This document shows, in pieces, positions 1 to 13,570 of a DNA stretch of 64,000 nt. The stretch lies in assembly GCA_036505055.1 (NCBI GenBank), contig DASXUE010000052.1, forward strand, positions 1,239 to 65,238, given 5' to 3'. The notes beneath the pieces were generated by a model, which saw nothing but the letters and a program-made list of their open reading frames with translations, did no database searches and had not been told where the DNA came from. Made by a program: the position numbers and the translations under genes. Numbering within the stretch: the stretch's first letter is position 1; every line of letters begins with the position of its first letter. Source of the stretch: Gemmatimonadales bacterium. GTDB lineage: Bacteria > Gemmatimonadota > Gemmatimonadetes > Gemmatimonadales > GWC2-71-9.

Positions 1-91
1 CGCCACGAAGCCGTCCTTCACCTTTTGGGGGATGACATTCATAGCGCGGGGAAGGTAATAGCCCCGGGAAGGGGCGGAAAGGCCAAAACTC

Positions 92-1345
92 CTAGTAGAG
101 CAAGTACTTGGCCCGCACGGCGCGAAACCGCGCGAGCTCTGCCTCCCAAGCGGTCCAAATCTCCCAGGGTTCCCGGCCCGCGATGATCGCCTGCCGGAGC
201 TCCGGCCCGCCCGCGAGGCGATCGAAGGACTCGTTCCTGAATTGAAAATCCTGGGGATACACGTGCCGTACCCATGCGAGCAGCAAAACCGCGAGCCGCG
301 TCGGATTGTAAGCCTGCCGGTCCGTCACCTTCAGCCCCAGCCCGACGATCTGCGTGTGGTCGTACTTGCCGTCCCCGGGATTCTCGGGCACGACGCGCAC
401 CGGCTGGACGTAGACGCCGATCAGCGGGCTGGCGCTGGCGCGTTTCCAGTTGGCCGGCGGCTCGAGCAGATGGCTGATGACGGCCTGCGGGTCGAGCAGC
501 CACGGCGCCGCGATGAGCTGAAACGCCTTGGACGTCCCGCGACCCACCGACAGGTTCGTGCCCTCGAACAGACACAGCCCCGGATAGTGCATCGCGCTCT
601 CGAGGTCCGGCATGTTGGGGGAAGGCTTCACCCAGGGCAGCCCGGTCTTGTCGAAGAACATGCCCCGTTTCCAACCGGCCGCCGGAACCACGACGAGGTC
701 GGCCCCCAACTTCAGGAGGTCGTTCGCCATTCGGGCCATCTCGCCGAGCGTCATGCCGTGCCGCATGGCGACGGGCAGGAACCCGACGAGGGCGGAGTCG
801 GGGTCCTGCAATTGGAGGTGCACGTTCCCCTGCACCTCCCGCCCGCCGAGGGGATTAGGCCGGTCGAGGACGACCACCCGCTTGCCGGCGCGCGCCGCGT
901 CCCGCATGAGGGACGTCGCGGTCGCGATGTAGGTGTAGTACCGGGCCCCGATGTCCTGCAGGTCGATCAAGAGGACGTCGAGGGAATCGAGCGCGGCGCG
1001 CGCGGCGGCCCTCGATCCGCCATAAAGGCTATAGATTGGAAGGCCGGTGGCGGAGTCGACCGCGTCCGGCAAGCCGGGGCGATCTTCAGTGCCGCGGAAG
1101 CCATGCTCCGGCGAGAACAGGGCCGTTGGCCGCTGGCCATTGGCCAAGAGGACGTCGACGTCGCGACGGCCCTGGCGGTCGATGCCGGTATGGTTGGAGA
1201 GGAGACCGAGCCGTTTGCCGGCGACGAGGTGGACCGAGTCGGCAAGCAGGACTTCGATGCCGGGTCGCACCTGGGCCGGGGCCCCCGCCGGCACCGTGCA
1301 ACCGAGGCAGCAAACCACTACCCACGCGAGACGATGCGCGCGCAT
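92..1345 (-). CDS. namZ: DUF1343/YbbC-NamZ family exo-beta-N-acetylmuramidase-like lipoprotein
   Basis: 417-aa ORF with a lipoprotein signal (MRAHRLAWVVVCCLGC). Family-typical blocks: GLLSNHTGIDRQG, ALFSPEHGFRG, TGLPIYSLYG, DRPNPLGG. Adjacent to a GH3 nagZ-like and an AmiE-like gene, as in the B. subtilis amiE-nagZ-ybbC module. Confidence 0.85.
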   Translation of the reverse strand: MRAHRLAWVVVCCLGCTVPAGAPAQVRPGIEVLLADSVHLVAGKRLGLLSNHTGIDRQGRRDVDVLLANGQRPTALFSPEHGFRGTEDRPGLPDAVDSATGLPIYSLYGGSRAAARAALDSLDVLLIDLQDIGARYYTYIATATSLMRDAARAGKRVVVLDRPNPLGGREVQGNVHLQLQDPDSALVGFLPVAMRHGMTLGEMARMANDLLKLGADLVVVPAAGWKRGMFFDKTGLPWVKPSPNMPDLESAMHYPGLCLFEGTNLSVGRGTSKAFQLIAAPWLLDPQAVISHLLEPPANWKRASASPLIGVYVQPVRVVPENPGDGKYDHTQIVGLGLKVTDRQAYNPTRLAVLLLAWVRHVYPQDFQFRNESFDRLAGGPELRQAIIAGREPWEIWTAWEAELARFRAVRAKYLLY

Positions 1346-3106
1346 AAGCTCCTATTAGTCTCTCTCGTAGTCGGATGTGCCACGGGACAAGCCGCGGGAC
1401 CCAGCGCGGCCGGCCCCGCGCCGCAGCCCGCGTCCACGGACGCCCTGCTCGCTGCGCTGTCGACACGCCAAAAGGTCGGCCAGCTCGTCGTCCCCTGGCT
1501 GGCGGGAAGTTACAGCGCCTTCGACGACTCCGCATTCCAGCTCGCCGTGCGCTGGGTGGACACGCTGCAGGTGGGCGGGATCATCATCTCCGTCGGCTCG
1601 CCGTACGACATCGCGACCAAGCTCAACCTGCTGCAGCGCCGCTCGCGGCTGCCGCTCCTCATCTCGGCCGACCTCGAGTGGGGCGCCGGGATGCGCGTCT
1701 CCGGGGCGACCTCGTTCCCGATGATCATGGCGGCGGGCGCCACGGGGAGCGAGCTGGACGCTTACGCGATCGGACGCGCCGCGGCGATCGAGGGCCGCGC
1801 CGTCGGCATCCATGTGAACTTCGCCCCCGACGCGGACGTCAACAACAACCCGCTGAATCCGATCATCAATACGCGCTCGTTCGGCGAGGACCCGCAGGCG
1901 GTGGCGCGCTTGGTGCGCGCGTACGTCCGCGGCCTCCAAGAGAACGGGATGCTCGCCACCCTCAAGCACTTCCCGGGGCACGGCGACACCGAAATCGACA
2001 CGCACATCGGTTTGCCGACGATCCGCGCCGTCTACGCCCGCCTCGACACGCTGGAGCTGATTCCGTTCCGCGCCGGCATCGCGGCCGGGGCCGACGTGGT
2101 GATGAGCGCGCACATCGCCTTCCCCGCCGTCACCGGGAGCGACGACCCCGGGACCCTCTCTCCGGCGGTGCTGACCGGCCTGCTGCGCGACTCGCTCCGC
2201 TTCCACGGGCTCATCGTCACCGACGCGCTCGATATGGGGGCGATCGTCACGAAGTACGGCGCCGGTGAGGCGACGGTGCGGGCCTTCCTGGCGGGCTCGG
2301 ACCTGCTCCTGATGCCGTCGAACCCCGACTCCGCGATCGCCGCGATGGCCGCCGCCGTCGAGGCCGGGCGCATATCGATGGAGCGGTTGGACGCCTCCGT
2401 GCGCCGCGTGCTCGACATCAAACGGCGCCTCGGTCTGTTCGAGCGTCGCACCGTCCCGCTCGACTCGGTCATCCAGACCGTGGGCGCCAAGCGGTTCCAG
2501 GACCAGGCCGACGACCTCGCCCAGCGCGCGGTCACGCTGGTGCGCGACACCGCCGGCGCCCTGGCCCGGCTCCGCGCCACGCGGGGGCGCGTCGCCATGA
2601 TCGCCTACGGCGACGAGCTGAACAGCTTCGTCGGCCAGCGGATCGCCGGGATGCTGCGCTCGGCCGGCGACACCGTCTCCTTCTTCCGGCTCTGGCCGAT
2701 GTCGGGACCGCTGTCTTACGACTCGGCCCGCGCCGCCATCGCCCAGGCGCCTGTGGTCCTGTTCGCCAGCAACGTCCGGCCCATCTCGGGACGCGGGAAC
2801 ATCGCGCTCCCCGACTCGCTCGCCCGGCTGATCATGGCGACGGATTCCGTGAAGCCGACGGTGCTCCTGTCGCTCGGGAGCCCCTACCTGTTGAACCAGG
2901 CGCCGACGGTGAAGTCGTACTTGATCGCCTGGAGCGGTGTGCGCGCCGCCGAACGGGCTGCCGGCCGAGCGCTGCTCGGCTGGTCGCCGATCCGCGGCAA
3001 GCTGCCGATCCGCATTCCGCCCGGGTATCCCATCGGCCACGGTCTGGTGATGCCCGACTCGACGCTGCCGGCGCCCAAGCCCCCGCCGCCGATGGGCGCA
3101 CGGTGA
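1334..3106 (+). CDS. nagZ: Glycoside hydrolase family 3 beta-N-acetylhexosaminidase (NagZ-like) lipoprotein
   Basis: In-frame ATG at 1334 inside track ORF 242..3106. Lipoprotein signal MRAHKLLLVSLVVGC. GH3 blocks SADLEWGAGMR, FAPDADVNNNP, KHFPGHGDTEIDTH. The upstream 364 codons of the ORF are antisense to namZ and were discarded. Confidence 0.9.
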   Translation: MRAHKLLLVSLVVGCATGQAAGPSAAGPAPQPASTDALLAALSTRQKVGQLVVPWLAGSYSAFDDSAFQLAVRWVDTLQVGGIIISVGSPYDIATKLNLLQRRSRLPLLISADLEWGAGMRVSGATSFPMIMAAGATGSELDAYAIGRAAAIEGRAVGIHVNFAPDADVNNNPLNPIINTRSFGEDPQAVARLVRAYVRGLQENGMLATLKHFPGHGDTEIDTHIGLPTIRAVYARLDTLELIPFRAGIAAGADVVMSAHIAFPAVTGSDDPGTLSPAVLTGLLRDSLRFHGLIVTDALDMGAIVTKYGAGEATVRAFLAGSDLLLMPSNPDSAIAAMAAAVEAGRISMERLDASVRRVLDIKRRLGLFERRTVPLDSVIQTVGAKRFQDQADDLAQRAVTLVRDTAGALARLRATRGRVAMIAYGDELNSFVGQRIAGMLRSAGDTVSFFRLWPMSGPLSYDSARAAIAQAPVVLFASNVRPISGRGNIALPDSLARLIMATDSVKPTVLLSLGSPYLLNQAPTVKSYLIAWSGVRAAERAAGRALLGWSPIRGKLPIRIPPGYPIGHGLVMPDSTLPAPKPPPPMGAR

Positions 3107-4241
3107 GGCTCCGCTACCTTGCCGTCGCGGCGCTGGCGGCGTGCGGCCCCGCCCGCCGGGCCGCCATCACCACCGCCACCGCCCCACCTCCCTCCGCCAC
3201 CGAACCACGCTTTGATTCCGTCGTCGCGTATCTCCGCTCCCAGGTGGACAGCGCGTTTCCGAGCGCCGTCGTCGCCGTCGGCTCGGGCGGGCGGATCGTG
3301 CTGCTCGAGGCGGTGGGCCACTACGGCATCGACGACCCACGCCGGGTCACGCCCGAAACGGTCTACGACCTGGCGTCGCTCACCAAGGTCATCGGGCTCA
3401 CGACGGCGTGCATGATGCTCGTGACCGAAGGGAAGCTCGATCTCGACGCGCCGGTGCAGCGCTACGTGCCGGCGTTCCAGGGCGCCGCCAAGGAGCGCGT
3501 CACGATTCGCCACCTGCTGACGCACTCGTCGGGCCTTCCCGCCTGGCGGCCGCTCTATACCGAAACGACGACACGCGCGACCGCTATGGCGCTGGCCGAC
3601 ACCACGCCGCTCGCCGCTGAACCCGGCCGAACCATGGTGTATTCGGACCTCGGCGCGATCGTGCTGACACAAGTCGTCGAGGCGATCACGGGCGAGCGTC
3701 TCGATCGTTTTCTCGACCGGCGCTTGTTTCAACCGCTCGGGATGACCTCGACGCGCTACCTGCCGCCGCCCGAGTGGCGGGACCGGATCGCCCCCACTGA
3801 GCGGAGCCAGGACGGCACGATCATCCGCGGCACCGTTCATGACGAAAACGCCTGGAAGCTCGGTGGCGTATCGGGGCACGCGGGTCTGTTCAGCACGGCG
3901 CCCGACCTCGCGCGGTTTGCCACCTGGCTCCTCAGGGCCTGGCACACGGACTCGTTGCGCGCGCGGGAGTTCACCCGGCGCCAGGGGCTGCCATCGGGCT
4001 CGTCGCGCGCGCTCGGGTGGGACACGCCGTCCGAGAACTCGAGCGCCGGCACGAAGCTCGGGCCCAACGCCTTCGGCCACACCGGGTTCACGGGGACGTC
4101 GATCTGGATCGATCCCGATCGCGACCTCTTCATCATCCTGCTCACGAACCGCGTGCACCCGACGCGCGAAAACGCGCGCATCGCCCGCGTCCGGCCGCGC
4201 GTGGCGAATCTCGTGGTGGACGCCATCACTCGCGGGGCGCC

Positions 4242-4245
<4 letters not shown>
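3103..4245 (+). CDS. Beta-lactamase-fold serine hydrolase lipoprotein (AmiE/YbbE-like MurNAc-L-Ala amidase candidate)
   Basis: GTG start forms a GTGA overlap with the nagZ stop. Lipobox LAAC. SxxK motif ASLTK, YSD, HTGFTG. The amidase role is inferred only from the neighbourhood. Confidence 0.8.
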
Positions 4246-6020
<1,775 letters not shown>

Positions 6021-12892: not shown

Positions 12893-13570
12893 TTAGCGCC
12901 GGCCGGTGATCTTGAAGTCGATCGGTTGATTGATGAGCACGCGCACCGCGCGCCCGTGAACGCGCGCGGGGCGGAACAGCGCCCGCAAGACATACGTCCT
13001 CGCCGCCTGGTCGAAGCCGGGGTTCGGGCTCTGCACGACCTTCACCGACGCCGGCTCGGCACGGCCCGACGTATCGATGATCGCCTGCACGATCGCCCGA
13101 CCCTCGATCCCCGCCTGTCGCAACAGGTCGGGATACTGGAGCTGCGGCCCCGAGAGAATCTCGGGCCGCTCCTCCACGACCGACTCGAGGAACACCTGGT
13201 CCGACGACGGCACGATCCCCCCGCCCGTCCCGCCCTCCACCCCGGAGCCGGTGTAGTCCTTCGGGTCGAAGTGCTCCTGCAAGTTGATCGGCGGAATGTT
13301 GGTGGGGATCTCGGTCGGTGCGACGACTGTCTGGAACCCCTTGAGCTGCGGGATATCGATCACCGGCGGCTGCTCTTCCTGCTTCTGCTCTTCCTGGTTG
13401 ACGAACACCATCAGCGTGTCCGGCACCTGCTCTGCTGCCTGGCTGGCCGTGAGCGTCGCAATCACCGCGAGCCCCACGATACCGGTGTGTCCCACCAGGG
13501 ATACGAAGCCAAGGCCGAACGCTGTTTTCTTGTCGGCCTTCCTCTTCGACTCGATCAGATGCTCGAACAC
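12893..13570 (-). CDS. TonB-family energy transducer
   Basis: 225 aa. N-terminal TM, charged/Pro linker, C-terminal YPDLLRQAGIEGRAIVQAIIDTSGR..ARVHGRAV block. Confidence 0.8.
   Translation of the reverse strand: MFEHLIESKRKADKKTAFGLGFVSLVGHTGIVGLAVIATLTASQAAEQVPDTLMVFVNQEEQKQEEQPPVIDIPQLKGFQTVVAPTEIPTNIPPINLQEHFDPKDYTGSGVEGGTGGGIVPSSDQVFLESVVEERPEILSGPQLQYPDLLRQAGIEGRAIVQAIIDTSGRAEPASVKVVQSPNPGFDQAARTYVLRALFRPARVHGRAVRVLINQPIDFKITGRR

Follow-up and report, generated by a model that had tools for sequence, protein, structure and literature searches.

The head-to-head overlap of namZ and a nagZ-like gene

The subject of this analysis is a pair of divergent genes at the beginning of a 64,000-nucleotide stretch of DNA (the window) from contig DASXUE010000052.1 of a soil Gemmatimonadales metagenome-assembled genome (MAG; assembly GCA_036505055.1, GC content 0.697, completeness 59%). 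On the minus strand, positions 92..1345 encode NamZ, a secreted protein of the exo-beta-N-acetylmuramidase family, with its start codon at 1345..1343. On the plus strand, positions 1334..3106 encode a GH3 NagZ-like beta-N-acetylglucosaminidase whose N-terminus, MRAHKLLLVSLVVGC, reads as a lipoprotein signal. The two genes meet in ATGCGCGCGCAT at 1334-1345, a perfect palindrome that contains both start codons and reads M-R-A-H on either strand, in codon phase 123:321. The window has a single copy of this 12-mer where 0.03 are expected, and 3 of 100 shuffles contained a match. By their reading frames, these are two protein-coding genes on opposite strands, each with its start codon inside the frame of its partner, and we consider the overlap very probably real.

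The minus-strand open reading frame (ORF) matched the Pfam domains NamZ_N (PF07075; 6e-71, 238.5 bits for a cut-off of 26.9) and NamZ_C (PF20732; 1e-41, 143.7 bits for a cut-off of 25), and its product matched the Bacteroides structures 4k05 (1e-56) and 4jja (4e-53) in the PDB. With both domains above their gathering scores, the gene is assigned to the NamZ family. The plus-strand ORF matched Glyco_hydro_3 (1e-82, 278.5 bits) in Pfam, and the PDB structures 6k5j (4e-80) and 3bmx, the Bacillus subtilis lipoprotein YbbD/NagZ (8e-66); its nearest solved relatives are N-acetylglucosaminidases. The name "nagZ-like" was chosen because the score of the protein against the NCBIfam NagZ equivalog (144 bits) is under the NCBI cut-off of 207.

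Both start codons could be bounded from upstream. In the window, a TAG lies two codons upstream of namZ (the third codon back), so that the gene cannot begin further up; six genomes have an in-frame stop at this third codon, with no start codon between it and the namZ start. The plus-strand frame of nagZ stays open for 425 codons upstream of 1334, and the window alone therefore leaves the nagZ start unfixed. The relatives fix it, since in-frame stops are found 3-8 codons upstream in eight genomes (loci L068, L059, L057, L062, L003, L055, L006 and L002). The nagZ ATG has another ATG or GTG codon immediately in front of it in 13 of the 56 loci that share the 12-bp overlap; its use would give a 15-bp overlap, so the overlap would be kept.

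On the downstream side, the next in-frame start of namZ lies nine codons in, a GTG at codon 10 that would leave MVCCLGC, and no further in-frame start was found within 25 codons of nagZ. Starting downstream would therefore delete the signal peptide. In both N-termini of all 56 loci, an n-region, a hydrophobic core and a Cys or Ala-X-Ala site are kept. A lipobox follows the pattern [LVI][ASTVI][GAS]C after a hydrophobic core. By this pattern, the NagZ N-terminus (..LVVGC) fits, whereas the NamZ of the window (..VCCLGC) departs from the canonical form; many of its relatives have a canonical ..LGIGC and some have no Cys at all. NamZ of the window may instead be cleaved after APA.

These results bear out the core of a preliminary description of this DNA. 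The palindrome reading M-R-A-H on both strands was found as described, the head-to-head arrangement with both start codons in a 12-bp overlap is upheld by the bounding stops, the signal peptides and the relatives, and no inner start codon preserves either signal peptide, as had been argued. The further claim that both ORFs begin with lipoprotein signals agrees with the NagZ sequence but is weaker for NamZ of the window, with its non-canonical CCLGC.

Conservation of the overlap among Gemmatimonadota

We collected 110 loci from Gemmatimonadota MAGs, of which 9 were dropped as identical, leaving 101 non-identical junctions (L007 comes from the unpublished genome G008, and L004, from G017, is duplicated by the public L035). 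Alignment of these orthologous loci, a check proposed in the preliminary description, recovered a 12-bp overlap (start-N6-start in the correct frames) in 56 of the 101 junctions, with the palindrome kept exactly in 33. A 15-bp overlap, ATGAAGCGCGCGCAT, was found in L044. With 57 of 101 junctions and a sister family, f3, overlapping, the arrangement is, as judged from these junctions, conserved between species and not a single annotation artefact.

A tree of NamZ was built from 99 rows, L022 and L068 being too short to be included. A clade of 62 rows with 100% support in the Shimodaira-Hasegawa-like approximate likelihood ratio test (SH-aLRT) contains 53 rows with the 12-bp overlap and one with 15 bp. 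The overlap has thus been retained in over 50 divergent genomes of species rank, whose NamZ proteins are as little as 55% identical. Escapes from the overlap within this clade are few: a TPR gene inserted between the two genes (3 loci), a spacer of 110-130 bp (2 loci), or no nagZ seen beside namZ (2 loci). One further clade member, L066 (DATNIM010000080.1), reads ambiguously: its nagZ has no standard in-frame start, and an ATG in another frame is followed 7 codons later by a TAG, so that a frameshift or a misassembly of that MAG is suspected. Where the overlap was lost, both N-termini had been swapped for unrelated sequences, such as MIRSRYAILL.. and MNRFHAFLAV... One of these loci, L052 (JBGOUQ010000006.1; 127-bp spacer), has long G-runs (GGGGGGGGGGGAGAGGAAGGGGGGGGG) in the 5' end of namZ, encoding a proline-rich stretch.

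The sister family f3 uses GTG starts. Its overlap measures 12 bp in L023 (GTGAGCGTTCAC) and 9 bp, GTG on GTG, in L024 and L028 (GTGACGCAC); in L025 and L027, TTGAAGCAC can be read with TTG/GTG as a 9-bp overlap or as a 6-bp spacer. This family had at one stage been taken as spaced (114-153 bp), a value extrapolated by alignment over a low-complexity linker; direct reading of the junctions gave the 9-bp overlaps instead. The linker itself, repetitive and rich in Ser, Arg and Asn (DNA repeats GTTGCGAGACG), connects the signal peptide of f3 NamZ to its enzyme domain. In 32 distant loci (Longimicrobiales, Palauibacter and others), the genes are separated by spacers of about 14-352 bp, approximate values since starts were picked heuristically, or by intervening genes, or no nagZ is adjacent.

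Other head-to-head arrangements were seen in passing. In the loci with a TPR insertion, namZ seems to overlap the TPR gene (PF14559, 1e-8) head-to-head by 15 bp: ATGCGAACGGATCAT in L007 (around 2700-2720) and ATGGAATCGGTTCAT in L008 (L008/L031:3007-3021), where the two genes would instead be 18 bp apart if the TPR gene began at an alternative TTG. In the genome of the window itself (G000), further candidates with close bounding stops on both sides lie at C20:18246-18260, C17:28742-28752, C47:9528-9537, C49:120118-120125 and C13:23704-23713; in one of them, the 15-bp ATGACGTTCCGGCAT, the plus-strand product carries a signal-peptide-like sequence. These candidates come from a scan with 194 raw hits, mostly shadow ORFs of a GC-rich genome, which was too noisy for any count to be drawn.

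Double coding and the palindrome

In phase 123:321, the start ATG of one gene is read by the other as CAT, the His at codon 4, and a CGN codon for Arg2 supplies codon 3 of the partner as NCG (Ala, Ser, Pro or Thr). CGC is the commonest Arg codon of the genome (53%), and its use as Arg2 on both strands yields CGCGCG, hence M-R-A-H twice. Variant 12-mers all encode complementary residues (MQAH/MRLH, MPAH/MRWH, MPTH/MRGH and MKPH/MRLH), and among the 55 aligned loci only positions 6 (0.73) and 7 (0.80) of the 12-mer vary appreciably. The palindrome is a by-product of double coding, and a protein-binding site is unneeded to explain it.

Conserved motifs next to the start codons

A short motif stands 3 nt ahead of each ATG and is complementary to codons of the partner gene. 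On the plus strand, the Shine-Dalgarno-like GAGA at 1328..1331, ahead of nagZ, corresponds in antisense to codons 5-6 of namZ (CGT CTC); on the minus strand, AGGAG at 1353..1349, ahead of namZ, corresponds to Leu codons 6-7 of nagZ (CTC CTA). Before nagZ, the 55 aligned loci keep G-6 at 0.95, A-5 at 0.98, G-4 at 0.87 and A-3 at 0.80, of which G-6 falls on the wobble base of namZ codon 6 and A-3 on that of codon 5. On the other side, positions 16-20 are kept at 0.85-0.98, including the wobble C18 of nagZ codon 6 (CTC) at 0.85; in the genome, CTC (45.5%) and CTG (42.9%) are used about equally for Leu. The null for a wobble base was taken from 278 conserved four-fold sites, whose median major-base frequency is 0.60-0.65. 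Since the wobble bases of the motifs exceed this median, the GAG bases are constrained beyond coding.

The proposal in the preliminary description that these flanks are constrained twice thus finds support in G-6 and C18. Its extension to a run of rare codons in nagZ (CTA-TTA-GTC-TCT-..-GTA) does not: the run is peculiar to this genome, and relatives mostly have CTC-CTG-ATC-GTT. As for RNA structure, 60-nt stretches at the starts, folded for both strands of the window and of L015, were no more stable than shuffles (z -0.9 to 0), and a small hairpin predicted in L015 (AUGC/GCAU plus GAG/CUC) did no better. No compensating change was found in the loci with an altered Y triplet (TGG in L050, L060 and L061).

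Candidate promoter boxes inside the partner genes

In this genome, upstream regions of tRNA genes carry TAnnTT boxes such as TAGGTT, TATATT and TAAGTT. Genome-wide, TAnnTT is enriched on the sense strand before starts (55 versus 14 within 30 nt) and is sparser in coding DNA (0.26 per kb) than in non-coding DNA (0.70 per kb). It looks like the -10 motif of this genome. A Bacteroidetes-type TAnnTTTG gave too few hits to serve as promoter model, and TAnnTT, taken from the tRNA upstream regions, was used in its place. A looser TAnnnT ends 6-11 nt before the start in 30 of 149 well-bounded genes, and many mRNAs of the genome would seem to be leaderless. Among bounded genes of G000, about one fifth have a TAnnnT box, about one fifth a Shine-Dalgarno-like motif, and most have neither.

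Up to 400 nt upstream of the two starts, TAnnTT sits at two fixed sites in the 56 overlap loci, which account for 55 of 55 hits before nagZ and 41 of 44 before namZ. The first site lies within namZ. In the window it is TAGATT at 1032..1037 on the plus strand, the only plus-strand TAnnTT in 800-1333, and would serve as the -10 box of the nagZ operon with a predicted leader of about 290 nt. It is the antisense of CCA-ATC-TAT; across loci the site has the form CT[AG]TAGATTGG, antisense of namZ CCA-ATC-TAY-AGY (L-P-I-Y-S). The site is present in 55 of the 56 overlap loci, 285-310 nt before nagZ, and in all five f3 loci. Its last T is the wobble base of a Pro codon, CCA, which is used at all 50 of the 50 sites found, though it makes up 3.8% of the Pro codons of the genome; it is the sole invariant among the 278 four-fold columns. 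Outgroups that share the P-I-Y residues use CCG or CCC, and TAnnTT occurs at this site in 0 of 28; within the clade, only L052 is without the CCA. We lean slightly towards the namZ-internal box being the nagZ promoter.

The second site lies within nagZ. In the window it is TAACTT at 1512..1507 on the minus strand, the only minus-strand TAnnTT in 1346-1900, antisense of GGA-AGT-TAC, and a candidate -10 box of namZ with a predicted leader of about 155 nt. The general form is GTA[GA][TC]TTCC, antisense of nagZ GGA-A[AG][CT]-TAY, found 144-180 nt before namZ in 41 of the 56 overlap loci. It depends on GGA, a codon used for 8.6% of Gly; of the 170 nagZ columns, no other has a wobble position at which A or T predominates. 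In four relatives whose namZ has left the overlap with nagZ (L007, L008, L010 and L036), a separate TAnnTT precedes namZ and ends at -7; GGC replaces GGA in three of the four, which are thus without the GGA box. The combination of a separate box before namZ with loss of the GGA box is suggestive, and the nagZ-internal box is tentatively proposed as the namZ promoter, the weaker candidate of the two. In L007 and L008 the box at -7 is TAGGTT and falls within codons 6-10 of the TPR gene.

The nucleotide-level constraint at both boxes is, like the overlap, its conservation and its coding logic, a direct observation. An Rfam search of 700-1900 at E-values up to 1 gave no family. A GGAAC upstream of nagZ, considered by eye as an element of the extracytoplasmic function (ECF) sigma factor type, was rejected, as it corresponds to the lipobox Cys-Ser-Ser codons of namZ and has no CGTC at a fitting spacing.

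Gene neighborhood

The gene downstream of nagZ, at 3103..4245 on the plus strand, encodes a beta-lactamase-fold protein (Pfam Beta-lactamase, 2e-73) and overlaps the nagZ stop by 4 bp. It matched the NCBIfam PBP4B model under its cut-off. It has the same position after nagZ as in the amiE-nagZ order described for B. subtilis (PMC8054146), and an AmiE-like amidase role may be proposed for it by analogy of gene order. A sodium:solute symporter gene follows at 4242..6020 (plus strand; Pfam SSF, 1e-32 on ORF 4017-6020), its start at 4242 being proposed from the ORF translation (MTLSF..). The overlaps GTGA (3103-3106) and ATGA (4242-4245) join the three genes. Start/stop overlaps of 4 bp are the usual sign of one translationally coupled operon. 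By this arrangement, the nagZ-like gene is at the head of an operon with the genes for the beta-lactamase-fold protein and the symporter. No regulator gene was found among the neighbors examined out to window position 13570, and there is no murQ, murP or murR nearby. The six runs listed for window positions 1-6000 are soil-metagenome DNA.

Discussion

We think it reasonably likely that the locus is a long-conserved start-on-start overlap of two secreted peptidoglycan-recycling genes, with expression signals in partner codons and candidate promoters facing each other. Because no spacer separates the genes, the expression signals of each lie within codons of the other. The GAG or AGGAG 3 nt before each ATG is encoded by the Leu6 CTC of the partner, and in the mechanism that we propose, most likely one TAnnTT -10 box would lie upstream inside each partner, held there by a rare codon. 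Transcription would then run face-to-face over about 455 bp (about 1044-1500), and each mRNA leader would be antisense to the first 50-95 codons of the partner. A transcript overlap of at least 12 nt would follow logically if both genes are expressed.

The simplest alternative is that no true overlap exists and that one gene starts downstream, the shared ATG/CAT being only a His codon of its partner. One survey put down every one of 75 divergent overlaps of more than 60 bp to start-codon errors (PMC2478687), but the overlap here is only 12 bp, and a later start in either gene would cost the signal peptide whose elements persist in all 56 loci; we regard this possibility as extremely improbable. 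The palindrome could also, extended as GAG-N3-ATGCGCGCGCAT-N3-CTC, be an operator for a dimeric regulator of both genes. It would be an obvious site for one protein to govern the two, the dyad is perfect over 12 bp and partial over about 24 bp, and the 12-mer is invariant in 33 genomes. Yet the symmetry is wholly explained by two start codons, two Arg2 and two Leu6 codons, with no dyad symmetry beyond coding; 23 of the 56 overlaps are imperfect, f3 has unrelated GTG-based 9- and 12-mers, the sequence was not retained in the spacers of the two overlap-lost loci examined (L010 and L052), and the neighbors examined include no regulator gene. An operator is accordingly very improbable. Better founded, though still improbable, is the proposal that both mRNAs are leaderless or nearly so, with promoters in the first 10-12 codons of the partner and transcripts sharing only about 12 nt. 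The frequency of TAnnnT boxes close to starts in this genome favors it, as do the boxes at -7 before namZ in the four non-overlapping relatives and a TAATAG at -12..-7 before namZ on the minus strand of the window. However, this TAATAG is without the final T and is unconserved, relatives having GATCAG; none of the 56 overlap loci has TAnnTT in -20..-1, TAnnnT occurs there in only one (nagZ) and three (namZ), and the wobble-conserved GAG at -6..-4 would be left without a role. The preliminary description had offered promoters inside the partner or leaderless mRNAs; the former follows logically from the missing spacer and has candidate boxes, while the latter is unsupported, given the few -10-like boxes near the ATGs. 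Interfering transcription of the two genes, which it also put forward, may follow from such promoters.

The remaining alternative is that the overlap is a neutral frozen accident, in which weak promoters, collisions and duplex RNA have no regulatory consequence. A lost spacer would be hard to regain, because any change hits two signal peptides, and this agrees with a single origin, long retention and few escapes, in which a TPR gene or a spacer of 110-130 bp came to lie between the genes. The need for NamZ and NagZ together, as described for B. subtilis (PMC8054146), and the ordinary stability of the local RNA folds point the same way. Such an accident is compatible with the anatomy of the overlap and denies only that interference has a function. 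Against it, the cost of the rare CCA and GGA codons shows selection on expression signals in the overlap zone, and retention over more than 50 species-level genomes is long for a neutral state. We give this alternative substantial weight, short of calling it probable.

Several observations weigh against the reading that we prefer, the conserved overlap with face-to-face promoters in partner codons. The promoter status of the boxes, the start sites, the leader lengths and any effect of collision or duplex RNA are deduced from sequence. No -35 element could be recognized by eye at either box, and a sigma-70 scan of 900-1800 was empty at both, returning one unrelated plus-strand match (1557-1584) and no terminators. 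Both boxes fall in conserved Tyr-containing protein motifs, and their conservation is therefore partly coding. Site 1 persists in four of the five clade members that lost the overlap and is thus not tied to the overlap as such. Site 2 is missing in 15 of the 56 overlap loci and in all five f3 loci, so it cannot be a universal namZ promoter; over four independent pairs, loss of the overlap and loss of site 2 were concordant in about 1.2, opposite in 0 and otherwise unchanged, which is not significant. Genome-wide, GGAG ends at -10..-6 and a Shine-Dalgarno-like motif of any sort is found in 32 of 149 well-bounded genes, while GAG or GGAG ending at -4 occurs in 0 of these 149. This atypical position makes a ribosome-binding role of GAG/AGGAG doubtful: the AGGAG reported earlier as a ribosome-binding sequence is present, but its spacing is unmatched in the genome. 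Finally, the joint action of NamZ and NagZ reported for B. subtilis (PMC8054146) fits poorly with mutually exclusive expression.

That interference is used for regulation rather than merely tolerated seems to us rather unlikely. Slightly more doubtful still is its most elaborate form, an excludon devoid of non-coding DNA, its promoters held in the partner genes by selection on rare synonymous codons. Polymerase collision, together with pairing of the antisense leaders of roughly 150 and 290 nt, would here determine how much NamZ is made relative to the NagZ operon, or switch between the two, and this circuit would have persisted through a Gemmatimonadales radiation at family level.

Literature searches found no publication on this locus or on Gemmatimonadota promoters, and comparison is with related arrangements elsewhere. 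Divergent overlaps were counted as 331 in 58 genomes (Lillo and Krakauer 2007, PMC2174442) and as 457 of 42,055 overlaps, or 1% (Palleja et al. 2008, PMC2478687). Like the short divergent overlaps of these surveys, the two genes share a few bases at opposite-strand 5' ends, and 123:321 is one of the three phases listed. The surveyed cases are, as presented there, annotation statistics with many start errors, whereas the present locus has bounding stops, two signal peptides and 57 related genomes, and is exactly start-on-start. Divergent excludons, as outlined for ExcludonFinder (PMC12288877), overlap at transcript 5' ends, as the transcripts here would, with interference and RNase III cleavage of duplex RNA expected. 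Their overlap is untranslated and is established by RNA-seq; the overlap here, known from sequence, is between the coding sequences themselves and leaves no non-coding DNA. A further parallel is scbA-scbR of Streptomyces coelicolor, a divergent pair described with face-to-face promoters (candidates in our case) and transcripts that overlap by 53 bp, modelled as polymerase collision plus antisense pairing (PMC3134472). That pair is a regulator/signal-synthase switch with a known repressor, and the overlap lies between the start sites of transcription; the present pair encodes two enzymes from one pathway, and its transcripts would overlap by about 455 bp, from candidate promoters inside coding sequence.

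In gene content, the locus resembles the murQ-murR-murP-amiE-nagZ-namZ operon of B. subtilis, with a linked enzyme set comprising NamZ and a two-domain lipoprotein-type GH3 NagZ; NagZ, AmiE and NamZ are reported to degrade peptidoglycan sequentially from the non-reducing end (PMC8054146). The B. subtilis genes all run in one direction, within a single operon that includes the MurR regulator (PMC8054146), in contrast to the divergent namZ that overlaps nagZ here, away from any murQ, murP or murR.

Among bacterial gene overlaps, the head-to-head coding class is the rarest, and its members are usually dismissed as start errors; the present case is backed by more than 50 genomes. It appears to be a well-supported example of a known but rare kind, the new element being a promoter-like TAnnTT box inside each partner. 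Prodigal disallows 5'-5' overlaps (PMC2848648), and Prodigal-based annotation therefore mis-starts one gene of the pair. A start misplaced downstream would remove a signal peptide and could distort the localization calls of peptidoglycan-recycling enzymes in abundant soil bacteria. With no intergenic DNA, expression signals would be written into the codons of the neighbor, an effect visible in the rare Pro codon, which is invariant, and in the rare Gly codon of 41 of the 56 overlap loci. The locus may thereby offer a natural test bed for coding-embedded promoters and for face-to-face transcription between two cooperating enzymes.

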